Source: a virus (lineage: Duplodnaviria; Caudoviricetes). From it: a DNA stretch of 64,000 nucleotides. Shown piece by piece: positions 34,601 through 48,784 of this stretch (positions are counted from its first letter, which is position 1; the number at the start of each line of letters is the position of its first letter). A program made the position numbers and the translations under genes. The DNA lies in the IMG/VR virus record IMGVR_UViG_3300006155_000002, one strand, 5' to 3'. The notes below the pieces were generated by a model, which saw nothing but the letters and a program-made list of their open reading frames with translations, did not search any database and was not told the DNA's origin.

Positions 34601-35737
34601 TCAACCTCCTCGCAATTGTTTTACAGAATCGGCTATGGCTCGTACGGCCTTGTCGATTTCCTCGCTTGTGGTGTACTTTGATACTGAAATCCTGATAGAA
34701 CTTCTTGCGTCATCGTCTGCGAGTCCCAGAGCAGACAAAACATGGCTTGGTACAGCATAGTGAGCAGAGCAGGCAGAACCAGCAGAAACTTCGATTCCCT
34801 TACTATCCAGCATTAAAAGCAGCGTTTCTCCGTCTATGCCAGCAAATCGAAGATTGATTGTCCGAGAGTTGTCGAACGGCGTACCATTGATGTATGTGTC
34901 TGGCACTTCAGATAAGATGCGATGTTTGATAGCGTTCGTCTTCATCCCGTAAGAATAGATATTTCGCAAATACGCTTGGTTGGCAATTTCTGCAGCTTGT
35001 CCCATTCCAACAATGTATGGGGTATTATGAGTACCTCCACGAAGGCCGTCTTCTTGGCTTCCGCCGAATATAACAGGGCAAAGAAGCTCTTTCGGTCTTG
35101 CGTACAGAAATCCAACACCCTTTGGAGCATGAATCTTGTGGCCTGATGCAGACAGAAAATCAATATGGGCGGCGTCTACATCAATTCGCATTCCGCAATA
35201 TGCCTGAACACAATCCGTATGAAACAAGATCGAATGTTTTTTGCAAAGCTCCCCGATTCGATAAATGTCATACTGGTTTCCGGTCTCATTGTTGACTGCC
35301 ATAATGGAAACAAGCCCGGTTTCAGGTCGAATTGCATCATAGATTTTGTCAAGTGTGATTGCACCATTTCCTTCAACTGGAACCCAGGTTACATCAAAGC
35401 CATGATAAAACAGGAGTTTTATTGCATTTATGACGGAGTGGTGTTCCACCTTAGACGTGATGATATGTGTTTTTCCTAAAGCCCTCAAATGCTCTGCGAT
35501 ACCAATGATAGCAAGCGTGTTGGCTTCTGAACCTCCGCCAGTAAAGATAATATTGTTCGGATCTGCTCTGATAGGTGCTGCTACTTGTTTTCGCGCAGTC
35601 TCTACCGCATTGCCTGCCATACGACCCATAGAATGAATGCTGCCAGGATTTCCATATATATCGGCAAAATACGGTAGCATTGCTTCCATTACTTCCGGCG
35701 AAACTTTTGTAGTAGCAGCGTTGTCTAAATAAATCAC
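34601..35737 (-). CDS. iscS: Cysteine desulfurase (IscS/NifS, DndA-like)
   Basis: YLDNAATT, GNPGSIH, HTDCVQ, SGHKIHAPKG (PLP Lys), SAGSACS (catalytic Cys); AGGAGG + GTG. Confidence 0.95.
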   Translation of the reverse strand: MIYLDNAATTKVSPEVMEAMLPYFADIYGNPGSIHSMGRMAGNAVETARKQVAAPIRADPNNIIFTGGGSEANTLAIIGIAEHLRALGKTHIITSKVEHHSVINAIKLLFYHGFDVTWVPVEGNGAITLDKIYDAIRPETGLVSIMAVNNETGNQYDIYRIGELCKKHSILFHTDCVQAYCGMRIDVDAAHIDFLSASGHKIHAPKGVGFLYARPKELLCPVIFGGSQEDGLRGGTHNTPYIVGMGQAAEIANQAYLRNIYSYGMKTNAIKHRILSEVPDTYINGTPFDNSRTINLRFAGIDGETLLLMLDSKGIEVSAGSACSAHYAVPSHVLSALGLADDDARSSIRISVSKYTTSEEIDKAVRAIADSVKQLRGG

Positions 35738-35751
35738 TAATGAACCGCCTC

Positions 35752-36288
35752 CTAAAGGAATAGTTCTTTCCACACAATGCGGCGCGCATCTCGAATCAGA
35801 TTTGACGCCCATGTTCTGCTGAATCCGAAAGCCTTTGATATTTCCGATGGACTGAATCCGTAAATATACATCTTGAGAACCTGTGCTTTCTGCTCCGGAA
35901 TCTTTTCTTCGATGGCTGGAAGGTCGCAGTCAACTTTATAATATCCGTCCTCGATACATGGCACCGTATGGCCAAATGGGATATCCATATCGGATTCTTT
36001 ATCAACGCCAACCACATAGTCCAAAGATATAACACGCGCCTTTTCTTTCTCACGATATCTTGACCGAAGCTCATTCTTAATTTCGTTTATTATGCACTTA
36101 GAGGCAAACGTAGAAAATTTGCCTCTGCTGTCATCGTAATGCTCACTGGCTTTCCATAGTCCAATCCTTCCACATTGAATGATGTCGTCGTCATTACATA
36201 GATCCGGGAAATATTTATGTACCATAAAGTACACAAGGTTTTCATTATCAATGATCCTTTGTTCAACTTCTTGTCTGGACACAAGCAT
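35752..36288 (-). CDS. Alternative sigma-70 factor (regions 2 and 4)
   Basis: NENLV..., DIIQCGRIGLWKA..YD..RGKFSTFA..CI.NEI; region 4 HTH. Confidence 0.9.
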   Translation of the reverse strand: MLVSRQEVEQRIIDNENLVYFMVHKYFPDLCNDDDIIQCGRIGLWKASEHYDDSRGKFSTFASKCIINEIKNELRSRYREKEKARVISLDYVVGVDKESDMDIPFGHTVPCIEDGYYKVDCDLPAIEEKIPEQKAQVLKMYIYGFSPSEISKAFGFSRTWASNLIRDARRIVWKELFL

Positions 36289-36301
36289 CGCTCCTTCCAG
36301 G

Positions 36302-36637
36302 TTAAACCTTCTTCAAGTCACCAATCCAAAACAACCACTTCGGTTCTGCTGTGTCCTCTGCGAAACATACCAAACTCTGCTTCAACCCTTTATCGTAGCT
36401 GACTGTAAACACCGTCTCCGCATTTTCTTCGCAAAAATTGCGGTATGCTGGTAACATTCGTTCATAATTTGGGTGCTTTCTGATAACCTCCAAGTTGAGC
36501 CGCACTTTGTCTCCTTCTTTGATTGACCAATCGCCTTCGATAACGTCCTTATATCTTTGGATGTCGCTCATGTCATTGAGAAGGTTCTTAATCTGAGTGG
36601 ATTTTGATGGATTTCGTCTCTCTTTGCGGTTCATCAT
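36302..36637 (-). CDS. Hypothetical protein
   Basis: MNRKERR start; GAGG SD. Confidence 0.7.
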   Translation of the reverse strand: MMNRKERRNPSKSTQIKNLLNDMSDIQRYKDVIEGDWSIKEGDKVRLNLEVIRKHPNYERMLPAYRNFCEENAETVFTVSYDKGLKQSLVCFAEDTAEPKWLFWIGDLKKV

Positions 36638-36643
36638 AGTACC

Positions 36644-37129
36644 TCAGTGATTATCGTTGTCGGTATGGACAATGTTGCCACGTCCAAATATGAACTCGAC
36701 AATATCTGTTCCATAGTCATCCAAAAAGTCTTGGAACGTCCGATAATCCTCATGACTTTGATGATCGATATAGCCATCGCTTGTATCAATTATGACACCG
36801 TTGCACTTAGCGTACTTTCCAATTTCCTGGCTGACACGCTTAAAATCTTTTGTTGTCATCAGCTCTTTTACATTCTCTTGCAGAGATTTTCTGCTACGAT
36901 ACCAAGTTTCCATTCCATTCTTCTCAGCAAGCATCGTCACCAAGTAAGAGAGCTTGTCCCCCTGCTCGGTATAATTCACGATCTCCCAGCCATACTCTCC
37001 AAGCTGGGTGTGAATGTATCCATCTGTCCCGATTGGCATATAATTCTGTGCCAACCCTCTATGTCGAATAGTGATCGAATGTGTACTGCTGCTGTTTGTC
37101 TCGAAAACGCTACGTCTAATTTGTTTCAT
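36644..37129 (-). CDS. Conserved phage protein (FETNSSSTHS family)
   Basis: IRRSVFETNSSSTHS; GYIDHQS; DNDN. Confidence 0.75.
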   Translation of the reverse strand: MKQIRRSVFETNSSSTHSITIRHRGLAQNYMPIGTDGYIHTQLGEYGWEIVNYTEQGDKLSYLVTMLAEKNGMETWYRSRKSLQENVKELMTTKDFKRVSQEIGKYAKCNGVIIDTSDGYIDHQSHEDYRTFQDFLDDYGTDIVEFIFGRGNIVHTDNDNH

Positions 37130-37694
37130 TTGTCCGTTCCTCCTTTGCTGTAGAAATAATTTCGTCTAATGTACGCGGTGTATAATCCATCCACGGCATC
37201 ATCGCGCCCACATTGAACATCTGGCATGGGCGGTCGTACAATTTCTCCATCAAAAACTTATCGTGTTCCATCATTTGAAACTCGAAAGAATTGTGTACGT
37301 GACCATAGAGGTGATACCAGCCATAGAAGTGGTTTTTGAAACATGGGATAGGGTAATGGCACAACACCACATTACGCCCCTCGTCTTCAATTTCCATGTA
37401 CTCCACAACCTTTGTAAATTTGTCGATGAATCGTCTGTTGTGGCAGCGATCATGATTACCCTTAATCAGGAAAATATCTCCGACCAGAGAGTCCAGCACA
37501 GGGATAGCCTTGTCTGTGTTGCACCAGAACATATCACCAAGGACATAGACGATATCTCCTGGCGTAACCACGGCATTCCATCGCCTGACAAGAGCTTCAT
37601 TCATCTGGTCGATATCCGTAAACGGCCTGTGGTCAAATGCGAGGCAATTCTTATGGTCGTAGTGCCAGTCTGCAATATAGAATTTTTTCGCCAT
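37116..37694 (-). CDS. Calcineurin-like metallophosphoesterase
   Basis: ADWH, LGD, GNHD, LCHYP, YGHVH. Confidence 0.92.
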   Translation of the reverse strand: MAKKFYIADWHYDHKNCLAFDHRPFTDIDQMNEALVRRWNAVVTPGDIVYVLGDMFWCNTDKAIPVLDSLVGDIFLIKGNHDRCHNRRFIDKFTKVVEYMEIEDEGRNVVLCHYPIPCFKNHFYGWYHLYGHVHNSFEFQMMEHDKFLMEKLYDRPCQMFNVGAMMPWMDYTPRTLDEIISTAKEERTNETN

Positions 37695-37695
37695 A

Positions 37696-38148
37696 TCAAC
37701 CGAACCCCACTACACGTAGATCATCGTCGATCATCCAGTCAATCTCCTCCGCCTTCAAATCTGTAATCTTCTGGACCGCCGCAATAATACGCTCGTGAAC
37801 CTCCTTGATACTCTTTGGCTCTGTTTCTAACATCTCCCAAGGCATAGAGGGCGGATAGTAGAAATAGTAGCTTCCCTCTCCATCACTTCCATAAGTAATA
37901 GAGTCTGTATCATCACAGTGTGTCAGAAGGTCAGCCAGATTCTCAAACGGGCCGCCGTACAGATAATCATCAATGTCAAGACTCCTAAAATCTTCAGAAG
38001 AAATCATCTGACGCAAATATTCAACGGTCGCCGTGTCATCCTCAAGCTGCTCAGCAAGAAACTGCGCCACCTTGCCCTTGTTCAACCACGGAACAAGTTT
38101 ATCTGTATCAAGCCCAATGCCTTCAATCATCCAATAGTCCATGCTCAT
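37696..38148 (-). CDS. Acidic hypothetical protein
   Basis: GGAGG SD. Confidence 0.65.
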   Translation of the reverse strand: MSMDYWMIEGIGLDTDKLVPWLNKGKVAQFLAEQLEDDTATVEYLRQMISSEDFRSLDIDDYLYGGPFENLADLLTHCDDTDSITYGSDGEGSYYFYYPPSMPWEMLETEPKSIKEVHERIIAAVQKITDLKAEEIDWMIDDDLRVVGFG

Positions 38149-38160
38149 AGCACACCCTCC

Positions 38161-38763
38161 TTAGTGTTCATCAAAAACGACCTGTTCGCCACTTTGAAGC
38201 GTCCAGCATCCATCATCGGTGCAGGCACATTCAGAACAGTTACCACCGCAATTCTTAGCATCTACTCGTGCGGTAGTGGAACCGTCTCGATATCTGACAT
38301 GAGCCTCTGGAAGCAGAAACGGGTTCTGCATCTCCAATCCAGTCCATGCGCTTAAGATCATATGTAAATTCTCCGGGATGCTTCCGCCCCTGGAGAGATA
38401 ATCATTCACCAGCTCATATTTCTTTGTGAAGCAAAGAATCTGGCAATGCTTGTTTCGCTGTGCGACGCTAATCATGCGGATCAGGTAGGAACTATCTGGA
38501 ATGTCTCCAGAAACATGAAATCTAAAAAATCGAGACAGCATAATTGCCGCCTCGACTTCTCTCCAATATGTATCCGGATCATCCCGAAGGACATCCAGGT
38601 TTCTTTGATACGACGCGGCCACATTTGGCCGAAGCCTTTCCAACTTTCTTGCGTAGCATTTCTGTTGACATGAACACACTCGACACGTCACAACGGACGG
38701 AAGTGATACGCTTGAAATCTTACCCATCTTTTTGTTTGCGCTACTGATACTTACCTCGCTCAT
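38161..38763 (-). CDS. GP88-like (radical-SAM-like Fe-S) phage protein
   Basis: NKKMG..SVSLP..TC..C..C..KCYA; FRFHVSGD; FTK; CGGNCSEC; AAAGGAG SD. Confidence 0.8.
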   Translation of the reverse strand: MSEVSISSANKKMGKISSVSLPSVVTCRVCSCQQKCYARKLERLRPNVAASYQRNLDVLRDDPDTYWREVEAAIMLSRFFRFHVSGDIPDSSYLIRMISVAQRNKHCQILCFTKKYELVNDYLSRGGSIPENLHMILSAWTGLEMQNPFLLPEAHVRYRDGSTTARVDAKNCGGNCSECACTDDGCWTLQSGEQVVFDEH

Positions 38764-39529
38764 AGCAGATCTCCTTTCTTCGCATCTGCGTATCATTATC
38801 AAACCTCCGTTTAAGTTCAAATATTCCTTGCGGCTCATTCTTATAAAATCCCTTAAACGGTCTGCTAATTTGACGCTGCAAATCTTCAAGTCTACTCCAA
38901 TACTGTGGGAGATACCAATAAATGTTCTGCAGCTCCCTCAAGTTTTTGTTTGCACAACACCAACATGATACTCTGTCAAGAATGTCATACAGGTCTATCA
39001 TGCCAGACACCGTGACTGGAGATTTCTCACTCCAATTCCATCCTCTATGACGACAATAAGAAAGGCAGTCCGCTTCTGTCATATCCCATTCAACAAGTGG
39101 GAGCACTTTCCCTGCAGATTTTTCTTTCTCAAAACGATCTGGCTCATCTGTCGCAATTCCAACATAGTCCGTTACTTCATCTGATATAGATTTTTTGAAT
39201 TTTCGAATCGCGGCTGTCTTCGCCGTTGTTCCCCAGCGGCATCTCCCACCACACCATGCATAACCTTGATGACATGATCCGTCTTGTCGAGATTTTACTG
39301 GCCTCTCCAGCATTGAATACAGAAACGGTTCTGATGGATGCAGTTCAATAAAATTTATGCCAACCTGTGATAAGATTGGCTTCATCCGATCTCTGATACG
39401 ATAGATGGCGTCAAATTCCATTCCAGTATCATAAAACACCACTGCATCAAGAGGTTTCTTTTCTTCCATAATGCGCAGCAACATGGCTAAAGAATCTTTG
39501 CCGAAGCTGACGCTTGCGATATACTTCAT
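38741..39529 (-). CDS. PAPS-reductase-family (PP-loop) protein, paralogue 1
   Basis: SVSFGKDS, DTGMEF, WCGGRCRWGT, VGIA.DE, RVSCWCC. Confidence 0.88.
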   Translation of the reverse strand: MKYIASVSFGKDSLAMLLRIMEEKKPLDAVVFYDTGMEFDAIYRIRDRMKPILSQVGINFIELHPSEPFLYSMLERPVKSRQDGSCHQGYAWCGGRCRWGTTAKTAAIRKFKKSISDEVTDYVGIATDEPDRFEKEKSAGKVLPLVEWDMTEADCLSYCRHRGWNWSEKSPVTVSGMIDLYDILDRVSCWCCANKNLRELQNIYWYLPQYWSRLEDLQRQISRPFKGFYKNEPQGIFELKRRFDNDTQMRRKEICYERGKYQ

Positions 39530-39678
39530 ACCGACCACAACCATATCTGGTTGAGGTCAACTGCCTAATCCTCCCATGCTACTCATCCTATGATTTTTAC
39601 GCCGTAACAGGCAGCTTTACCATGTACTTATCAATTCTACATGAACCTGGTTTACCAGGATTGGTATTAGCTCCTTTC
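39530..39678 (-). ncRNA. Structured leader motif, copy 1
   Basis: GAAAGGAG-9nt-ATCCTGGTAAACCAGGTT-CATGTA..TACATG-GTAAA; same architecture at 47655-47820. Confidence 0.55.
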
Positions 39679-39695
39679 GTTGTTCTTCTTCATTG

Positions 39696-40148
39696 TCACA
39701 CACCAATTGCAACGGGAATCGTAGCCATTCCCTTATTCTTACATACAAGATAGGCTGTATATCCATCCCGGAGGATTCCATCATCATCCACACGAACTTT
39801 CGTTTTCACGCACCCAAATGTCTTCAGTTCCCGCCTACGTTTGGCGAGCTTACTTTCGCGTGGCTCAGACAATATCATTGAAATGGGGATTTGGATATTT
39901 GCAATGTTGATGTTTTTCACCACAGCAACGATATTCTTCAATGGAATTGTGACACCATGTTCTGCAATTGCATGACCAGCTTCTTCATCAGTCATGATCT
40001 GTGAAACAATCTTTCCGGGCATATTCCCTCGCCTCGTATCACAGATAACATCTGAACCATACTCAACATATGGCATGAGGCGATCAGGAACTCCGAAGCA
40101 ATATTTCTTTGTACTCTGCTCATTATGCTGTACGAGTACGACATTCAT
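39696..40148 (-). CDS. Hypothetical protein with ParB-like C-terminal motif
   Basis: VICDTRRG; VRVDDDGILRDGYTAYL. Confidence 0.6.
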   Translation of the reverse strand: MNVVLVQHNEQSTKKYCFGVPDRLMPYVEYGSDVICDTRRGNMPGKIVSQIMTDEEAGHAIAEHGVTIPLKNIVAVVKNINIANIQIPISMILSEPRESKLAKRRRELKTFGCVKTKVRVDDDGILRDGYTAYLVCKNKGMATIPVAIGV

Positions 40149-40437
40149 ATTTTGTTCCTCCCTCCAAAATCCTCATGAATGAATTCTCTTCGATGTCGAA
40201 CTCTGCTTCCTCTTCTATGAGACAAAGATCGCTCTCCCAGACTTTCCATCCGTGTCCATTTTCGCATTTTCCGCCGCAATCATGTCCATGAACATTCTTA
40301 TCCCATTCGACTCCAATGAATTTATTCCGCTCTATGAAGCAAATTGTTCCTTGATCGCCTTTGTGAATATTTCCATTTTCCTCTGGAGCATTTTTCGTCG
40401 CCTGAACACGATCTCCGATCCTAAACTTGCTTTCCAC
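40123..40437 (-). CDS. Hypothetical phage protein
   Basis: KFRIGDRV..VEWD..GHDCGG. Confidence 0.65.
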   Translation of the reverse strand: MESKFRIGDRVQATKNAPEENGNIHKGDQGTICFIERNKFIGVEWDKNVHGHDCGGKCENGHGWKVWESDLCLIEEEAEFDIEENSFMRILEGGTKYECRTRTA

Positions 40438-40439
40438 GC

Positions 40440-40802
40440 TTATTTACCTCCATATTTCTTTATTCTGAGCTTTAGCCCATATCGTTTTGCAAGGTCGATC
40501 ATATTCTTTGTTCCTCTACTCTTGCCATCCCAAAATGCAACAAGGGCATCTGCATTCCTTGCCATCTCTTCATTTCTAATGAATCCAGCAGCTTTTCCAT
40601 ATCGCTCCCAGTCAGCCGGATAATAATCTACAGCATATCCCTTTTCTTTGGCATACCTCTCACCAAGTGTATCTGCTCCGCGAGCCTTTCCGCATACGAT
40701 TCTTACGGTGTTTTGAGTGTTAGACAGAAGATGATCCATCGTACAGTACAACAAATCAAAGTCACTAAAATCTCGCCCTCCAGCAATAATTACTCGGAAC
40801 AT
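40440..40802 (-). CDS. SLOG-family protein (DUF2493/YspA-like)
   Basis: IIAGGRDF, GKARGAD, AAGFIRNEEM, FWDGKSRGT. Confidence 0.9.
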   Translation of the reverse strand: MFRVIIAGGRDFSDFDLLYCTMDHLLSNTQNTVRIVCGKARGADTLGERYAKEKGYAVDYYPADWERYGKAAGFIRNEEMARNADALVAFWDGKSRGTKNMIDLAKRYGLKLRIKKYGGK

Positions 40803-41262
40803 ATTTCACCGACCTTACGTTCAAGCTCTGCCCATGCTTCTTCGATAAGCGGCTTTCCGCAAACAAGGCAGTATCTGGCCACGGTACTTGTGCAGCCGTG
40901 CAGCGTAAATCCTCTAAGTGGTATACTCCCGAATTCTTTACACCACCAACATCCATTCCATTTACTGCGATCCATTTTTGTCACCACCTATCATCAAACT
41001 CTGGTTTTATTTAATAAGCTGTTTATAGATTGCCTCTGCATCTTTTCCTAAGATAGCATTGATGATTTTAATGTCACCGCCCATATCCTTTCGACTTACA
41101 ACAAGAGCAGACAAGTCATCATCATTTTCATCCTGTTCAAATGCAACGATCAATACATCAGAAGTTTGCATAATTACCTCCTGTCTAATGCGCCTTTCTC
41201 ATTCCTCCGCAGAGAGCGAGCTTTCAGAGACCATCCGCAGATTCCGTGGGCATAGTTACATA

Positions 41263-42114
41263 TCACATAGAAGTTTGTGTGCTATAGAAGTTGATGTCGC
41301 CGCCGGTCTTCTTGTCGATTCCATTGCCAGCGACATGGAGACTATAGTCCTCCCACTTATCTCCGGCCTTGTGATACTCCGTCGTATCCTCAAAGACGCC
41401 CTCGTGATGTTCGATGACAAACTGTACAGTACCCTTGAAATTTGGGATCAGTGTTGTCGTCCAAGTACGCTCTTTGTGGTAGTCAAAGTCAGGATTATAC
41501 TTAAGAACTTCGCCCAAAAGGAAAACAGAAACGAGTCCTGCGTCTGCGCAGAACTCGCCAAGCACTTCATCGGTATCTGTGTCGTAAACTGTGCAACCCC
41601 AATCTCCATATAATGTATCACTGGTCATATAGTGTTGAATACCGAGAGTTTCCATGTGTGAACCATAATCACAAGCACACCAATCATCGTCGGTGATAGG
41701 GGTAGTGCCATGATGCTTCTCCCTGATGATATAACATGGGTCGGTGATGATAATGTCTCCATCGAACTCCATCGGCTCTGAATCGAGGTATTTGTCCAAT
41801 CCGCCATTTACTTTGTAAAGGATGGAATTATATGCGTCTGTATCAAGACCACGTATAAAGTCTTCCATTTCCATAAACCAGCCTGAAAACGCCTCATCAT
41901 CATCATGATTATTAAAGATTTTAAGAATGGCGGCAGGCTCAAACAAGTTATACGACTCTTTACCGCATTCGCAATCCATAATAGCAATTACATCTTGCTT
42001 GTCTTTTTCTGATAAAAGCGAAGAACTGTTGATGGTCTCAACAATCTCAGTTCGCTTTTTCTCTGCCTCATTCAAGAGTTCTTCTTTTTTGCTTTCAATC
42101 CACTGTTTGTTCAT
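41263..42114 (-). CDS. Hypothetical protein
   Basis: IITDPCY, TLYGDW, FCADAG motifs of a phage family. Confidence 0.7.
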   Translation of the reverse strand: MNKQWIESKKEELLNEAEKKRTEIVETINSSSLLSEKDKQDVIAIMDCECGKESYNLFEPAAILKIFNNHDDDEAFSGWFMEMEDFIRGLDTDAYNSILYKVNGGLDKYLDSEPMEFDGDIIITDPCYIIREKHHGTTPITDDDWCACDYGSHMETLGIQHYMTSDTLYGDWGCTVYDTDTDEVLGEFCADAGLVSVFLLGEVLKYNPDFDYHKERTWTTTLIPNFKGTVQFVIEHHEGVFEDTTEYHKAGDKWEDYSLHVAGNGIDKKTGGDINFYSTQTSM

Positions 42115-42137
42115 ATTATCCCGCCTCTCACTCTTAG

Positions 42138-42989
42138 TTAAAATCCATTCCAAATTTCCTGGTTGTGATACATAAAGCACTCTGCATCACAACAATCGCA
42201 ATCAGTCAACTCTGTTAATCTTTTCCTGCTTCTGGATATAAACAAATCAGAATCCATAGGAGGCTTTGGATTGTTATCTCTCAACAGTTCATCGACTTCA
42301 ATAAGTTGTTGATATGCTTCTGGCTCATTCTCTTTCAAATACTTGAAAAAGTAATTCTTATGAAATGGACAGAACGCACAGGCCGACGCCTTCGTTTCTA
42401 ACCCCCATACATCTTTGATGTATGCAAAATTGTCGGCCCTGGTCAGTCCCATTTCAACCAGAGGAAATTTATTGACAAACATAGGGTTTGGGCTTTCCTT
42501 GCAGCGTCGAATCTCTTCCGCGCTGAACCCCATGTGCATCTCATGTGCTTTCTTGTCTTCTTCCCGAAGCCGCTGTCCTTTCTTATATCCAAGGGCAGTC
42601 CAGCGAACAAACTTTGATATCTGGTTCACCTTGTAATCAATGGTGCAATTTCTTGGCATCTTTGATTTATGTCCATCCTCTTTGAGCGTCCACCATGGTA
42701 TGCTTACAACACGCTTTCGGCCGAAGTCTCTCATTAAGTCTGTATACAATGGAGTATCAAGCTGCTTGTACCAGATACCTGCTTCATCACAGGCTTTATG
42801 AACAAATTCCGCTTGTCGTTTTACCCATGGAGGTTCAAATCCGAGGTCACAAAAAATCACCAGATCGTAAATAGGAACAAGCGGATGCGGGATGTTGTGC
42901 GTTCCGTTCTTTACTGCTCTGGCATTTTCGCAGCTCATAAGAGCAAGCGCCGTACTTTGCATACCGGCGCCAAAGGATAATATCTTCAA
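42138..42989 (-). CDS. PP-loop/PAPS-reductase-like protein, paralogue 2
   Basis: LSFGAGMQST, FCDLGFE, RNCTIDYK, GFSAEE..R, SACAFCPFH; TTG start. Confidence 0.8.
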   Translation of the reverse strand: MKILSFGAGMQSTALALMSCENARAVKNGTHNIPHPLVPIYDLVIFCDLGFEPPWVKRQAEFVHKACDEAGIWYKQLDTPLYTDLMRDFGRKRVVSIPWWTLKEDGHKSKMPRNCTIDYKVNQISKFVRWTALGYKKGQRLREEDKKAHEMHMGFSAEEIRRCKESPNPMFVNKFPLVEMGLTRADNFAYIKDVWGLETKASACAFCPFHKNYFFKYLKENEPEAYQQLIEVDELLRDNNPKPPMDSDLFISRSRKRLTELTDCDCCDAECFMYHNQEIWNGF

Positions 42990-43005
42990 AATTACACCAC
43001 CTTTG

Positions 43006-43036
43006 AATAAAAAAAGAGCAGGCACCGGCCTGCTCA
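43006..43036 (-). terminator. Intrinsic terminator just upstream of paralogue 2
   Basis: GAGCAGGC/GCCTGCTC + T7 on - strand. Confidence 0.75.
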
Positions 43037-43223
43037 ATTTTTATTCTTGTTCGTCCTTGATCTCATACCACCGATCAACCTGGCTGTCTACCCAATCGTT
43101 CATGGCTTCCTCGATCATCTCTGGTGTATCACCTTCATCAAAGTCCATTTCAACGGTACGCTGTTGGGCGAATATCTCCAAATAAAATTTGACTTTCATT
43201 TACTGATTTACTCCTTCGATAGT

Positions 43224-44000
43224 TTATCTCCAGTAACAATAGAGACAGCCATGTGGGCACTGTTTCTTATTTTTCAAAAGCTCTGTCTTTCCGGAGTAGC
43301 ACAGACAATTTGGCCTTTGATATCCGCAGCTATCTGAATCGTCAGTTTCCAGATTGAGCAGATTCAGATCGTAATTAGAGATACATCCGCACTGGATAAC
43401 ATTTTTGAGTCCAGGCTCTGCACAGCATTCAATACGGAGTTCATCTCCGAATATCTCACGATTTCCCAGGGAGTACCAATGATACCTTGCGTCCTTGAGC
43501 ATTTCATCTACCGCCGCAACCTGCTCTTTGTTTGGAGAGAATCCAAATTCTCCGTATGGGAGCGGAAGGTTTGACTGCTTGAACCGCTCTCTGACATGAG
43601 GGTACATATCAATGATGCTCACTCGGAATCTGGAGAATCCGACATCCATAAAACTCTTGATGACCCTGAGCGCCAAATCAATTCCCTTTTTGGTTGGAAT
43701 GATGGGATCAACACGAATGACTATCTTCTCCTTTGGAAATCCATTTTTCACAAGCGTCATAATCGCGTCAAATTCATCATATGTATCCGGCACTTCTGGT
43801 TCAAGAACAGAACCTCCATACCCAGTGAATGTCGCATGAACTATGAGCTTGTTCTTATTAGCGATAACAGCATCATGAAAATCTACCGATATACACTTTG
43901 TGATTACAACTGCCCCGTCAACTGTATCCAGCTTATTTATCCAAGACAGATCTTTGCCTGCGTCTCCAGCTTCTGTGACACCAATTTTATATTTTGCCAT
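43224..44000 (-). CDS. DUF1848-like radical-SAM-related protein
   Basis: TFTGYG..LEP.VP, RVDPIIP, CCAE, QRPNCLC, CPHGCLYCYW. Confidence 0.82.
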   Translation of the reverse strand: MAKYKIGVTEAGDAGKDLSWINKLDTVDGAVVITKCISVDFHDAVIANKNKLIVHATFTGYGGSVLEPEVPDTYDEFDAIMTLVKNGFPKEKIVIRVDPIIPTKKGIDLALRVIKSFMDVGFSRFRVSIIDMYPHVRERFKQSNLPLPYGEFGFSPNKEQVAAVDEMLKDARYHWYSLGNREIFGDELRIECCAEPGLKNVIQCGCISNYDLNLLNLETDDSDSCGYQRPNCLCYSGKTELLKNKKQCPHGCLYCYWR

Positions 44001-44223
44001 TGATTGCTCTCTCCATTCCAATTTCTATAAGCATCCGAATACCATCGCAAACCTGTTCATGACTGTATGGTTTATATGGAACGAATCCTCCGATTGCGTT
44101 GACTTTGTGAACTCTGTCTTCGTCATTCTGATAGACATGAACTAAGATGGTTTCGAGTTCCAGCAGAGCATCTGCATACTCATTGACAGATGAAAACTCT
44201 TTCCCATCCAAATACAACCGCAT
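43987..44223 (-). CDS. Hypothetical protein
   Basis: ORF in operon. Confidence 0.55.
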   Translation of the reverse strand: MRLYLDGKEFSSVNEYADALLELETILVHVYQNDEDRVHKVNAIGGFVPYKPYSHEQVCDGIRMLIEIGMERAINGKI

Positions 44224-44250
44224 TTATTTCACCACCAGTTCACTTTTCTG

Positions 44251-44279
44251 TTGACATCGATATACCCTTTTTGTATACT
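44251..44279 (+). promoter_or_regulatory. sigmaA promoter of a counter-oriented single-gene unit
   Basis: TTGACA-17-TATACT. Confidence 0.85.
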
Positions 44280-44309
44280 TTTCTTATCACATACAAAGGA
44301 GGGATATAC

Positions 44310-44516
44310 ATGGCTGCACGCACTGTTAAGTCCGTTGAGGAAAAGGTTGCGGCAATTGACCAAAAGATTGCGAAGAAGCAGGATGAAATCGCCGCCCTTG
44401 AAGCTCAAAAGCAGAAGCTCCTTCACCCGGTCAATATGAAGACCGTCATGGCCAAAGCGAAGGAGGCCGGACTGACGCCAGAGGAAATCGCTGAAAAACT
44501 CGGTATCGAGGTCTAA
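44310..44516 (+). CDS. Small coiled-coil/HTH-like protein (moron)
   Basis: AAAGGAGG SD; coiled coil then AKEAGLTPEEIAEKLG. Confidence 0.8.
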   Translation: MAARTVKSVEEKVAAIDQKIAKKQDEIAALEAQKQKLLHPVNMKTVMAKAKEAGLTPEEIAEKLGIEV

Positions 44517-44521
44517 CTATG

Positions 44522-44551
44522 GAGCCTGCCCACAATAGTGGGCGGGCTCTT
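44522..44551 (+). terminator. Terminator of the moron
   Basis: GAGCCTGCCCAC/GTGGGCGGGCTC stem. Confidence 0.75.
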
Positions 44552-44854
44552 AATAAATAATGTAATACTCTGTGTCATCCTGTCCCCAGCGAATGGTCTC
44601 CATATACCGTCCTTCGCTTACCAGCCACCCCGCTTGTCCCATAACAGCAGCTACATCAGCAGCATGAACACAGCGAGCTGTTCTCTCGTGATGCCACCCG
44701 GTTGGTGTTACCTTTCCTGTGAATGCGTTTTTCTTCATCCGCTTGAAAGCTGGAGAGGATGCCTCTACCGCCATTCCGAAGGTAGTACCATCAAACTCTT
44801 TCATGTGAAGCTCAATCATAGATTACTCCTCTTGCTTTTTATAAAAGCTAAGTT

Positions 44855-45214
44855 TTATTCAGTTTTACACCTTTGTTCTGCATAGGCGTTCTTATACCAA
44901 TCACGTTCCGCCGTCAAAATACGAACGTTGTCCTCGGCAGTTATAGCCCTTTTGACCATCTCATCGTACACATCTTTGAGAAGCAAGCAACACCTGTCAG
45001 AAAGCATTATCTCCGGTTTCCCTTCGAGAGACATCATTCTTGCTTTGGCAAGTAGGTCATCCAATCCACGAGCCTCTCTGCGGAAACGAGCACTTTCTTC
45101 CTCAAGATATTTGTACTCATCCTTGCTAATCCACATTTGCCTCACCTCATTGGCTCTCGTCAAAGAGTTTTGCTGTGTTAAGGAAAATGCGTTTGAGCTG
45201 GTCATCATATCCAA
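44855..45214 (-). CDS. Hypothetical protein
   Basis: ORF; likely starts at MWISK. Confidence 0.5.
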   Translation of the reverse strand: MDMMTSSNAFSLTQQNSLTRANEVRQMWISKDEYKYLEEESARFRREARGLDDLLAKARMMSLEGKPEIMLSDRCCLLLKDVYDEMVKRAITAEDNVRILTAERDWYKNAYAEQRCKTE

Positions 45215-45608
45215 ATCGCTGTGCGTTAATCTGGATACTTTTCAGGAGATTCCCGTCATTGTGGCGCTCAGTCGCTGCCTTCCAGTCGCAGAACATCTCA
45301 CACAGGTCAATAAGGTTCATACCCAGAATCCCATCATCAAAATGCTCCGGGTGATGTCTGGACTGAGCATAGTGATGGTCAAGCGCTGGTTTCATGGCAT
45401 CCATATGGGCCTGATACTCAGGCGTTGCGTACCCAGTTGTAGCGAGGGCATCTGTATGTTCTGCAAAAATCTCGACTTCTGGAGATTCTAATTTGCAGTG
45501 GTCGTGATTAACGCCCCTCGTTGTTAGCTTATCCGTAAACAAACGAATATAGTAACGAACACGCTCAATGTGTTTCTGAGTCTCAACTTGACACTCATGG
45601 ATTGTCAT
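45147..45608 (-). CDS. DUF5662-like HD-related protein
   Basis: HDHCKL, HHYAQSRHHPEH, EMFCDW. Confidence 0.8.
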   Translation of the reverse strand: MTIHECQVETQKHIERVRYYIRLFTDKLTTRGVNHDHCKLESPEVEIFAEHTDALATTGYATPEYQAHMDAMKPALDHHYAQSRHHPEHFDDGILGMNLIDLCEMFCDWKAATERHNDGNLLKSIQINAQRFGYDDQLKRIFLNTAKLFDESQ

Positions 45609-45638
45609 TATTCTACCTCCTCATATCAAAGTTCTGTT

Positions 45639-46641
45639 TTATTCCCTTGGACGTATACCAAGGTTTTTCATTCTATTGCGGAACTCAAGATATTTTCTGG
45701 TGTACTCATAACTTTCTCCAAAAATGTTTTGTGCTGCCAGTAACAGTTTCGGCTCAAACTCTTGTATTGAGTTGAGCTCTTCCTCAAACCGCTTTCCGAA
45801 TGGACAACCAAAGCACCCAGTACGGATTAAACCATACTGGGTGTAACATCTACTATGTGTAACTTCATAGTGCTTGCAGTATTCCTTTTTATCTTCGTCT
45901 CGGAGCCAGAATACTGGCCTAAAGTGGTTGATTCCTTCTCCTTCAGAAAAGCAATTTTTATATGTTGCGGCTCTAATTCCTCCCTCCGAACGTCTGACGC
46001 CAATACAAGACAAATCATAGTGCCCACCTTTGATAAATTTTTCAGACACCCTTTTCTTTGCGTATGTGCAACATTTATCTGAGATTTTGAATGTAGGAGG
46101 GTTTATAATCATGAAGTCTTTGAGGTAAGGTATTCGTTTAATTGCATACTGCGTTGTGTTACCAGTTATGACATTACACCACCACTCCAACGCCGTTTTG
46201 CATTTTGGGTATCTTTGAATCAGTACCTCAAATGGCTCGCACTCCCATTGAAAATTGTGTGATTGCAACCGGTGAATCATATCGGATGCAAATTTGCTCC
46301 AGAACGGGGCGCCATATTCTTTAACGCAGTTTGGGATTGGTTTGATGGCATTAACTCGATGTATCTCAATCTCGTATTTACGCTCAAGTGCCTCCAAATG
46401 TTCAAATGTGGCCGCATATTCCAAACCAGTATTGAAGAACACAAAAACTACCTTATCTTTTGCCCCGCATCGAAGCAACATATCAACCATTACATCACTG
46501 TCGCCCCCCCCCGCTGCAAGAGCACACAATGTGTTGGTGCTCTTGCACCACTTCAAAACACCTTATGAGGGCATCTCGAATCACAAAATTGTCTGGTGAG
46601 CTATCAATGATGTAATCTAAAGAGTTCTTTGACATACTCAT
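45639..46641 (-). pseudogene. PAPS-reductase-family protein, paralogue 3, frameshifted in a G9 tract
   Basis: ATG 46641 with GGAGG SD reads ...IVCSCSGGG-RQ-stop; removing one G gives CSCSGGGDSDVM...NTGLEY, CCTYAKK, GVRRSEG, RTGCFGCPF. Confidence 0.8.
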
Positions 46642-46643
46642 TT

Positions 46644-46865
46644 TTAGCCTCCAACAACTTTGGATATTTTAATCGTATCCGAGTTTACTTCTTCGGCACG
46701 ATATCCTTCCTGGTTTGCCCACTGCATAATGTCATTCATATTTTTGCGGTCGCTGTGCTCGACATCAAGACATACGGAGGATTTCCTCTCAATTACAAAT
46801 GCCTTTCGCATTACATTGATGAACTCTTCATGTGTCCAGTTGAACATTGAGTTCCAGTTAGTCAT
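46644..46865 (-). CDS. Small hypothetical protein
   Basis: GAGG SD. Confidence 0.55.
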   Translation of the reverse strand: MTNWNSMFNWTHEEFINVMRKAFVIERKSSVCLDVEHSDRKNMNDIMQWANQEGYRAEEVNSDTIKISKVVGG

Positions 46866-46889
46866 ACCCTCACTTCCTTCATAAAAATT

Positions 46890-47654
46890 CTATTTTATTG
46901 CAGCATAAAATTCTCTCGAGTTAATTTTGCGTCCTGTCGCAATCCATTCATCCTCAATAATAAAACGACGCTCCAATTCTTGGATGCTCTTTCCTGCACC
47001 CTTCATTGGAGCATCAATGTTTTCTTGTAAATATCGAAGCTTTTCCCAGTAGGCCGGTAACTGATGATAGATATTGCGAAGCTCCTTCAAATTTTTGTTC
47101 TTACAGCACCAACAGCTCACTCTATCCAGAATATCGTACAGTTCAATTTCTCCCTCATACCAGTAAAAACCTCTATCATGGCAATATTTTAGGCAGTCGG
47201 CCTCTGTAAACCCTGCTTCTGCTAATGGTGAACTCTTATGTTGTTCCATCTTTTCAAGACGTTTTGTCTCATCTATTGCAATTCCAACATATGTATGGTT
47301 GCTTTGGATATATTGGTTGAGAACATTCTGTTTGATAAACGTTCCCCAACGACACGGGCCGCCACACCAACCATCGCCAAAAGCAACGCGGCCATCTCGC
47401 TTTGTTTTTCTTCTAAACAGCATATCGTCCAGAAATGGACGAGGAGGTTTAAGCTCTGTATACTTGACTCCCGCCAGCCGAAGTTTTTCTTTGACAGTAT
47501 CCCTGATGTGGTAGATTGCTTGAAACTCCACACCAGTGTCATAGAAGACCACTTCGTCTAAAGGTTTGCCCGTTTCCAAGAGCAGTAGTAACATAGCCAA
47601 ACTATCCTTGCCAAAGCTCACACTTGCAAAATACCTTTCTTTCACATCAACCAC
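46890..47654 (-). CDS. PAPS-reductase-family protein, paralogue 4
   Basis: SVSFGKDS, DTGVEF, WCGGPCRWGT, RVSCWCC; clearly homologous to 38741-39529. Confidence 0.88.
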   Translation of the reverse strand: MVDVKERYFASVSFGKDSLAMLLLLLETGKPLDEVVFYDTGVEFQAIYHIRDTVKEKLRLAGVKYTELKPPRPFLDDMLFRRKTKRDGRVAFGDGWCGGPCRWGTFIKQNVLNQYIQSNHTYVGIAIDETKRLEKMEQHKSSPLAEAGFTEADCLKYCHDRGFYWYEGEIELYDILDRVSCWCCKNKNLKELRNIYHQLPAYWEKLRYLQENIDAPMKGAGKSIQELERRFIIEDEWIATGRKINSREFYAAIK

Positions 47655-47820
47655 GTATCGAATCCTCGATAGGTGGTAACACTCTAAACTCCACTCATAC
47701 GGCTATGTGACTTTCGGCACATGGTCTTATTGGCATCTTCTGTCGCATTTTACCCAAACGTAGCTGCTAAAGATTTCCGCTTGGAACCTCGTTTCACGAG
47801 GATCAGATGTTACTCCTTTC
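47655..47820 (-). ncRNA. Structured leader motif, copy 2
   Basis: GAAAGGAG-9nt-ATCCTCGTGAAACGAGGTT-CCAAGCG..CGTTTGG-GTAAA. Confidence 0.55.
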
Positions 47821-47844
47821 TGCAATCATCATAGCGTAACCTCT

Positions 47845-48042: not shown

Positions 48043-48332
48043 TCTGACTCCTCATGCCACAATCCAATAGAGAAGTCATTTGTAAAGTCCTCGTTATCCT
48101 TATCTCCATAGACAAGAACGTCAAATTGATGATCACTCCACACGATACTGTCGCCATCATAATGGTAGCTACTACGGATGACAGCTAAATCCTGGCACCA
48201 CACACTATCTCTATCCATGATACCAATAAACATCTCTCTGCTATATTTCGGATCTGTGTTTTGCTCTGCTACCAATTTATAGCCATTAAACAGATCAATT
48301 TCGATACGATTTCTTGCATTTTCTGACATCAT
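48039..48332 (-). CDS. Hypothetical protein
   Basis: QDLAVIR...VLVYGD..NEDFT. Confidence 0.65.
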   Translation of the reverse strand: MMSENARNRIEIDLFNGYKLVAEQNTDPKYSREMFIGIMDRDSVWCQDLAVIRSSYHYDGDSIVWSDHQFDVLVYGDKDNEDFTNDFSIGLWHEESE

Positions 48333-48784
48333 TACACCTCACTTGTTGGCGTTCTGTATAGCTGATATTTCTTACTGATTACATGAGCGATATTATCGGG
48401 TAACGGTGCGAACCAAATTCCTGTTAGTGTTGTTCCGTTTTCTTCCTCTGGCGATAATTCGGTCATACAATTATCATAAATCAGGCCAAAATTCTCACCT
48501 TCGACAAGTCCAAGTTCCTCAGCAACAATCTTGACTTTGAGTAGCTGGTTTTTGTTTTTGGCTTCGCAGATTGTTTTGACAAAAGATCCATTGATATAAT
48601 TATCGAAAATACCGCCGTCAATTCTGGCTGAGCAGCGATAATCATCCGAGCAATCGATAAAATCAGAGTGATTTCGAATGAAATTCATCCAATACGCCTC
48701 AGCGCAGTGTGCAACTTGTGCAGCCAACTTACCTGGAGACATTTTTAAGTCTTTTCGCATAATAAACAATCGTCTATAACCCAT
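48332..48784 (-). CDS. Peptidyl-tRNA hydrolase, PTH2 family
   Basis: RKDLKMSPGKLAAQVAH, K.IC, IYDNCMTE, T.TGI...P. Confidence 0.85.
   Translation of the reverse strand: MGYRRLFIMRKDLKMSPGKLAAQVAHCAEAYWMNFIRNHSDFIDCSDDYRCSARIDGGIFDNYINGSFVKTICEAKNKNQLLKVKIVAEELGLVEGENFGLIYDNCMTELSPEEENGTTLTGIWFAPLPDNIAHVISKKYQLYRTPTSEV

Follow-up and report, generated by a model that had tools for sequence, protein, structure and literature searches.

Why would a phage gene carry its only strong Shine-Dalgarno (SD) sequence far upstream of its start codon, with a folded RNA in between? The question is raised by a PAPS-reductase-like PP-loop gene of 262 aa (38741-39529, minus strand; PF01507, E = 2.8e-8; phrog_424, E = 3.2e-35) in the window, by which we mean the whole stretch of 64,000 nucleotides that was analysed. 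The parent IMG/VR virus record is 67 kb long and has an estimated CheckV completeness of 55%. All genes in this part of the window lie on the minus strand. The upstream neighbour is a 150-aa open reading frame with its stop codon at 39696, and 17 nt later begins a leader that a first-pass annotation had taken for a cis-regulatory RNA shared by paralogous genes. At the level of sequence, this view is supported by a family of related leaders, by their restriction to one kind of gene, and by the covariation of their helices.

Architecture of the leader

The leader of this gene (copy 1) occupies positions 39528-39678 of the minus strand and consists of a strong SD, five helices, and a start codon that lies inside the closing helix, P1. 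The elements listed in the first-pass annotation (the SD, the hairpins, the stems and GUAAA) were all present on the minus strand. The SD, GAAAGGAG (39671-39678), was read in the sequence and forms the 5' edge of the conserved motif. Next come CUA and AUACC (39663-39667); the latter is the 5' strand of P1, begins 3 nt past the SD core and pairs with GGUAU (39528-39532). The final two bases of GGUAU are the A and U of the AUG start codon (39527-39529).

Within P1, the P2 hairpin CCUGG-UAAA-CCAGG (39646-39659) has 5 bp and a UAAA loop, and the P3 hairpin CAUGUA...UACAUG (39620-39644) has 7 bp and a conserved 11-nt loop with the consensus AGAUUGAUAAG. The P3 loop carries the 5' strand of a pseudoknot (39633-39636), which reads AAUU in copy 1 and GAUU in most sequences of the main family described below, and which pairs with the GAUU of GGGAGGAUUA at 39567-39570. 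The J3/4 junction, UAA of the conserved GUAAA(A) (39617-39619), is almost invariant in both subfamilies. The P4 domain (CUGCCU/AGGCAG; 39559-39616) comprises P4a (39609-39616 with 39559-39566), a possible P4b (39604-39608 with 39578-39582), and a variable tip, P4c (39585-39594), in which inserts of variable length were found in leaders L129, L163, L204 and L234. A conserved bulge in P4, AUGGGAG, lies just before the pseudoknot strand. P5 (39533-39558) has an outer part, GACC/GGUC, and an inner 6-bp hairpin, CAACCA/UGGUUG, separated by one 1-nt bulge on each strand. P4, P5 and P1 follow one another without linker bases, and roughly 60 conserved nucleotides are unpaired in the fold.

Two peculiarities of the initiation region that had been pointed out earlier were both seen again: no ATG, GTG or TTG occurs 4-14 nt past the SD, and no AGGAGG-type sequence precedes the AUG. 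The start at 39529 itself is backed by the protein N-terminus MKYIASVSFGKDS, which is common to the homologues.

Distribution of related leaders

A covariance model, R1, was built from 26 sequences (158 positions, 35 pairs), with the second copy of the window left out of the seed. We identified 74 distinct close relatives of the copy 1 leader, scoring 118-177 bits with R1, and these constitute the main family; the motif thus stands before many homologues of the copy 1 gene. They derive from phage contigs, from prophages of Oscillospiraceae and other Clostridia, and from metagenomes, most of these of the human gut. A pattern scan recovered copies in IMG/VR contigs of 24-160 kb, in genomes of Dysosmobacter, Flavonifractor, Clostridiales CCNA10, Oscillospiraceae MAGs and others, and in 60 metagenome contigs, many of them named as human-gut assemblies. 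Each of five large phage genomes contained one leader copy and no extras. In the family of one carrier, the leader was found in 1 of 151 sampled genomes, namely the query carrier, under strict filters by which weak matches could be missed. Such sporadic occurrence in host genomes fits a prophage-borne element.

The same leader precedes the genes of the viral homologues nearest to the copy 1 protein (60-70% identity). In GC-rich homologues at a greater distance (57-59% identity), the leader is absent and a simple GGAGG lies shortly upstream of the ATG. Within the main family, the leader that diverges most, at 118 bits, was encountered on a metagenome contig (L326, 93-1223); its P1 is reduced to 4 bp (ACCC/GGGU), and its P2 is rearranged and still paired.

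A third type of long leader, about 200 nt in length, was noted on three viral contigs (L010 and L012, each at 1271-1530, and L013) before genes whose products share 60-61% identity with the copy 1 protein. Its features are UAAA, a long stem that includes GGGUAGCC, and a final hairpin. An R1 search of these three sequences gave no match.

The second copy and its subfamily

The first-pass annotation had also reported that the same order of elements recurs before a paralogous gene. R1 detects this second copy at full length (32.5 bits, E = 6.5e-8). Copy 2 (47640-47822, minus strand) is a divergent member of a second subfamily, with its SD at 47813-47820 and a P1 formed by ACAUC (47806-47810) and GAUGU (47644-47648). 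It serves a PAPS-reductase-like paralogue (46890-47645, minus strand) that matches PF01507 and phrog_424 and whose protein is 54% identical to that of copy 1.

The second subfamily has seven members, copy 2 included. Proteins 65-89% identical to the copy 2 protein all have upstream gaps of about 150-220 nt, and six leaders of the subfamily were matched by R1 with E values of 1e-8 to 1e-13. When the subfamily was folded separately, the same plan was obtained: SD, P1 with a GUG start, P2, P3, GUAAAA, P4 and P5. Relative to the main family, P1 differs by one compensated pair, C-G to U-A (ACAUC/GAUGU). Among viral contigs, close relatives of the copy 2 protein were found at one locus only, and no leader was present there.

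The open reading frame finder places the start of the copy 2 gene at GTG 47654. Judged by the layout of the main family, the GUG at 47643-47645 inside P1, which would give MKERYFASVSFGKDS, is the likelier start than this in-frame GTG.

Covariation and fold

The single-sequence fold is a junction closed by AUACC/GGUAU, with -50.1 kcal/mol and z = -3.2 against shuffled sequences. We assessed the 35 nested pairs of the family in two sets. In 40 distinct sequences, 97.2% of the cells were paired and 24/35 pairs showed two-sided changes; in the metagenome set, 98.2% of the cells were paired and 22/35 pairs showed compensatory changes. Across the analyses, 22-25 pairs carried such changes. None of 500 shuffles reached the observed values on any measure. 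When partners were slid, pairing in the 40-sequence set was 25-41% with at most 7 compensated pairs, and at most 9 compensated pairs were seen over both sets. The fold is a feature of RNA, because its conserved U-G and G-U pairs exist only on the strand of the gene.

The pairing of AUACC with GGUAU at the start codon, a detail of the first-pass annotation, turned out to be the best supported of all its details. P1 was paired in 100% of cells in both sets, with compensatory changes, and it covaries with the identity of the start codon: its second base is U with an AUG start and C with a GUG start, with no broken cell. The second pair of P1 was UA in 22 and CG in 18 of the 40 sequences, and UA in 31 and CG in 13 of the metagenome set. 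At the middle pair of P2, U-A and C-G were similarly divided (20 and 19 in the 40-sequence set; 22 and 22 in the metagenome set). P3 had two-sided changes at 6/7 pairs in both sets, and its basal pair was U-G in 38/40 and 44/44 sequences. Compensatory changes were found at 7/8 pairs of P4a and at 3/3 pairs of P4c. P5 was paired in 96% of cells; its outer pairs are near-invariant and its inner pairs vary compatibly. The inner pairing of P4 (P4b, GUUAC/GUAGC) is compatible, but its changes are one-sided only, and P4b is for this reason unproven.

A scan of all column pairs yielded mostly noise, and only pair 47/204 and its neighbours stood out. The key pair of the pseudoknot, between the A of the P3-loop GAUU and the first U of GGAUUA, is A-U in 37 sequences and is doubly changed to G-C in L168 and to C-G in L014. 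All cells of the 4-bp pseudoknot pair, and three more compatible one-sided changes were observed. In the second subfamily, the equivalent strands are AAAU and GUUU, the latter being AUUU in L254, and they could pair. For these leaders RNAalifold favours a local pairing instead, so the pseudoknot between the P3 loop and the P4 bulge was rated for the main family only, in which it is probably real.

Other pairings were tried and set aside. The inner P4 pairing proposed by RNAalifold, CGU with the AUG before GGGAGG, has partner columns that vary freely (AU, AC, UU, AA, AG). A second RNAalifold pairing, UGUU with GGAUUA, is a competitor of the pseudoknot, which has better support, and does not hold in L014. 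For AAUCC in J1/2 with GGAUU, and for the P3 loop with CAAUC, the variants AAGCC and UAACC did not covary consistently. Neither inspection by eye nor the column-pair scan revealed a conserved alternative pairing; P1 holds the start codon and there is no terminator. With nearest-neighbour folding that ignores the pseudoknot, P1 had a probability above 50% in only 61% of the leaders, which speaks against the closed P1.

These substitution patterns also bear on whether the SD might simply serve a short leader peptide, running from AUA or AUC to the UAA of GUAAA and coupled to the main gene. The frame from the AUC of AAUCC is indeed open to the J3/4 UAA in both copies of the window. However, no canonical start lies at SD spacing, AUA swaps with ACA in step with the main start codon, and AUC is lost in L003, L014, L089, L163 and L194, which have AAGCC or UAACC instead. 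The compensatory changes of P2 and P3 rewrite the peptide, so that base pairs are kept and codons are not, and the peptide would end about 90 nt short of the start of the main gene. We regard a leader peptide as scarcely credible.

The Shine-Dalgarno sequence and start codon as parts of the motif

The SD is itself a part of the conserved motif. Information content is at most 0.8 bits upstream and rises to 1.3-2.0 bits over the four bases that precede GGAG, and the conserved region begins exactly at GAAAGGAG, with upstream genes that differ between loci. The SD is of the AAGGAG type in 66/74 leaders. Its core is separated from P1 by 2-3 nt in 72 of the 77 leaders scored, and the other five gaps probably arise from the choice of the SD core by the search pattern. 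Of the main-family leaders, 46 have ATG as the start codon and 28 have GTG. In four carrier genomes the 3' end of 16S rRNA was found to be GGAUCACCUCCUUUCU; GAAAGGAG is complementary to the host 16S 3' end CUCCUUUC, and given this tail it is therefore a perfect 8-bp SD.

In copy 1, the spacing from GGAG to AUG is 141 nt, and all family members share the combination of a distant SD with no AGGAGG-like sequence at the start. Homologous genes without the leader (L015-L080, L237) have an ordinary GGAGG near the ATG, and the two other PP-loop genes of the window have ordinary SDs. A conserved structure closes the gap in the leaders, with P1 flanked by the SD on one side and holding the start at its 3' end. 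Clostridia genes normally depend on an SD. As the only SD lies about 140 nt away, the fold must join SD and start in such hosts. With the SD 5' of P1 and the start at the P1 3' end, folding would therefore assemble a discontinuous ribosome-binding site.

A scan of the element and its flanks for terminators and promoters revealed no site positioned to act on the element; the only match inside the motif was on the plus strand (39646-39659), opposite to the gene. Given the lack of such sites and its place in an operon, the element is most naturally read as controlling the initiation of translation. We propose, with a probability of about one half, that the element is a cis-acting translational leader forming a discontinuous ribosome-binding site that is probably gated by a ligand or a protein. 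In this model, the five-helix junction P1-P5 would be locked by the pseudoknot of the P3 loop and the P4 bulge. The sole strong SD lies 2-3 nt 5' of P1 and the start at its 3' end, at a linear distance of about 140 nt in the main family and about 165 nt in the second subfamily. Folding of the domain would bring the SD and the start codon within a few nucleotides of each other in space, and unfolding would leave the start codon with no usable SD. If the two outer pairs of P1 opened for initiator tRNA, the distance between SD and AUG would come to 4-5 nt and the breadth of a helix of 3 bp. Judging by the pseudoknot and by the roughly 60 nucleotides that are conserved although unpaired, the fold seems to be no mere spacer; it would probably be stabilised or disrupted by a small molecule or protein tied to the chemistry of the enzymes, making translation conditional. 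What we infer here is the use of the bridged site by ribosomes, the direction of control, and both the existence and the identity of an effector.

The direction of control might also be the reverse. A complete P1 engages the A and U of the start codon in base pairs, and the same helix could therefore repress instead of activate. Under such a repressive operator or riboswitch, the fold would hide the start in P1, and perhaps a weak SD-like GUGGUC in P5, with the 5' SD acting as a standby site and the folded state being OFF; translation would begin when the fold opens, or would be prevented by a ligand or protein. The constant pairing of the A/U (or G/U) of the start codon in P1 agrees with this, as does the burial in P5 of GUGGUC, which could pair with the GAUCAC of 16S rRNA. 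In the third leader type, which is possibly related, the AAGG of an ordinary AAGGUGA SD sits in the 3' strand of the final hairpin, just before the start. However, R1 does not match that leader type, and the complementarity of GUGGUC is only GUGG in most members of the second subfamily. Recruitment of the ribosome would be unclear in an SD-dependent Clostridia host if the strong SD of the unfolded RNA were about 140 nt off, and the fixed gap of 2-3 nt between SD and P1 would be left unexplained. A repressive fold is in our judgement rather unlikely.

GUGGUC (39533-39538, minus strand) was noted in all main-family leaders, 3 nt before the AUG in copy 1. Its complement in the 16S tail, with one G-U pair, is located directly 5' of CUCCUUUC, so the two halves, GUGGUC and the distal SD, could bind adjacent segments of a single rRNA tail. 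The observation was made post hoc, on a sequence mostly reduced to GUGG in the second subfamily, and it may be due to chance.

Downstream genes

A PP-loop, PAPS-reductase-like gene of phrog_424 stands behind 74/74 distinct leaders, and in 74/74 the leader lies directly 5' of the coding sequence; the link to PAPS-reductase-like genes suspected from the two copies of the window thus extends to the whole main family. PAPS-reductase-like phage genes of phrog_424 are often annotated as auxiliary genes of sulfur metabolism. The downstream proteins fall into four subfamilies: they were of the IASVSFGKDS type in 49 cases and of the CFSGGHSS type in 23, with one ISAGVSS type and one canonical SGGKDS. 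The IASVSFGKDS, CFSGGHSS and ISAGVSS types show no mutual BLASTP similarity, and representatives of each match phrog_424. Across these dissimilar protein subfamilies the leaders are near-identical in their conserved parts. Conservation of the leader thus far exceeds that of the proteins, which points to selection acting directly on the RNA and to a role tied to a feature that the enzymes have in common. No candidate ligand follows from the gene context.

One way to tie the leader to the enzymes is autoregulation, in which the PP-loop enzyme, or another phage or host protein, would bind the leader and set its own translation. The leader might then mimic a nucleic-acid substrate of the enzyme, as for ThrRS on thrS or for T4 gp32, gp43 and RegA. 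PP-loop enzymes commonly act on nucleic acids, the association of the leader with one enzyme superfamily is exclusive, and two of the four paralogues in the window carry it, all of which would suit such a mechanism. However, the three protein subfamilies compared lack BLASTP similarity and yet have near-identical leaders, so that several different proteins would need the same RNA-binding specificity, and no RNA-binding domain was detected in the encoded proteins. We consider autoregulation unlikely.

Several features of the surrounding genes were recorded. In the window the leader precedes 2/4 PP-loop paralogues, and no leader of the same family was found before the other two. The apparent 186-nt gap before one of these (gene 42138-43037; region 42988-43223, minus strand) is no leader; it holds a 52-aa open reading frame (43041-43199) with its own SD, and a strong terminator-like hairpin (43016-43035) lies 3' of that frame. 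Past the hairpin come AAAGGUGG and then a TTG (about 42988), and it is at this TTG that the PP-loop gene more likely starts. In the other, the third paralogue, a run of nine G (46504-46512, coding strand) lies inside the PP-loop region, and an ATG with a GGAGG SD is found at 46641 in another frame. The 13-kb stretch with the leader genes (34601-47654) also encodes a class-V aminotransferase or cysteine-desulfurase-like gene and a DUF1848 gene. A GP88-family gene overlaps the end of the copy 1 gene, and a PTH2-like peptidyl-tRNA hydrolase (48332-48784) lies just past the stretch.

Elsewhere, the product of L326 has 325 aa, with a canonical SGGKDS behind a 40-residue N-terminal extension. In a prophage region of Dysosmobacter segnis (L113, 1-8000), the leader and a CFSGGHSS-type PP-loop gene were encountered between two gene groups. 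Upstream of the leader gene are another PAPS_reduct gene and a FolD-like gene, and downstream is an NAD salvage set of isochorismatase/nicotinamidase-like, PRPP-synthetase-like, NAMPT-like and NAD synthase genes.

Comparison with known RNAs

A cmscan of the whole window against Rfam 15 (4227 models, among them every curated family of riboswitches, ribozymes, T-boxes and leaders), which had been proposed as a check of novelty, gave zero matches at gathering thresholds. No match was obtained for leaders at E <= 1 over 8.9 kb, nor for leaders L096, L253, L014 and L012, and the leader alone at E <= 10 gave only chance-level matches of at most 17 bits. The best match below threshold was to the luteovirus BTE (RF00434), over AUCCUGG-UAAA-CCAGG, with 16 bits against a gathering score of 45 and E = 0.48 on 221 bases, which is chance level. 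This segment does resemble the conserved 17-nt sequence of the BTE, and both are translation elements, but the BTE is a 3' element of eukaryotic plant viruses. The PAGEV RNA motif was rejected as an identity: it is a motif of plasmid replication regions (Weinberg et al. 2017), found on plasmids of Vibrionales and other gamma-proteobacteria, and the leader does not share this setting.

The absence of Rfam 15 ribozyme families among the matches bears on a further reading, namely that the RNA has an activity of its own as a self-cleaving ribozyme, an operon processing signal or a stable non-coding RNA. Ribozymes typically have intricate folds with pseudoknots and many bases that are conserved but unpaired, and small ones occur frequently between phage genes; the location within an operon would also fit. 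This reading would however not account for an SD and a start codon that are part of the fold, nor for the covariation of P1 with the type of start, and the element has no promoter or terminator of its own. An independent activity of the RNA therefore seems improbable.

The proposed discontinuous ribosome-binding site finds its closest principle in phage T4. Split initiation regions of T4 genes 38 and 25 were reportedly described by Nivinskas and colleagues in 1999 and by Malys and Nivinskas in 2009. At these genes, intervening hairpins cut the spacing between SD and start from 22 to 5 nt and from 27 to 11 nt, respectively (PMC3014915). As in the leader, an SD and a start too far apart along the sequence are bridged by a conserved RNA structure in phage genes within operons. 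The T4 sites, however, have one hairpin across 22-27 nt, whereas the leader has a pseudoknotted five-helix junction of about 140 nt with the start codon itself in the closing helix, and the two have no sequence relationship. Function has been shown for the T4 sites and is predicted for the leader.

The leader is a conserved, covarying, structured domain in the 5' leader of a gene, as riboswitches are. Like the translational riboswitches for lysine, cobalamin and SAM (SAM-I), it has a P1-closed junction, a tertiary pseudoknot, variable tips, conserved junction and loop bases, no terminator, and one functional class of genes. It differs in that no Rfam model matches it. In the known riboswitch classes, the SD lies 3' of or inside the aptamer, close to the start, and is sequestered, whereas the SD of the leader lies 5' of the domain.

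An IMG/VR-based catalogue of 2023 lists 10,006 candidate structured RNAs (Fremin, Bhatt and Kyrpides; PMC10690425), of which 879 are within 25 bp upstream of genes with known domains. The main text of that paper mentions neither PAPS reductase nor the architecture of the leader, and the motif may be an unnamed entry of the catalogue. A full-text search of the literature, including the main text of PMC10690425, found no description of the motif. On these sequence comparisons, we class the leader as a putative new cis-regulatory RNA class with a much enlarged split ribosome-binding site.

Implications

A more specific and tentative form of the proposed split site, which we rate as possible and well short of even odds, is a riboswitch-like class in which the effector-dependent, pseudoknotted domain would dock in the space that separates the SD helix from the P site of the 30S subunit, in the manner of a bacterial IRES. 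The remaining 3 bp of P1 would lie at the E site like a codon-anticodon duplex, and translation of the phage PP-loop enzyme would be switched on only when the RNA is folded.

If the proposed discontinuous ribosome-binding site is correct, a class of RNA with a complex fold from phages of gut Clostridia would be added to the few orphan motifs of riboswitch or ribozyme grade, and the principle of the split site, seen in T4 with a single hairpin (about 25 nt), would be widened to cover a folded domain as large as about 140 nt. It would raise the questions of how the 30S subunit accommodates such a structure and whether bacteria or their phages have IRES-like initiation. The leader is compact and modular and is readily tested by reporter fusions. 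It would also provide a handle on the function of the widespread phage genes of phrog_424, as the signal to which the leader responds is likely tied to the role of the enzymes.
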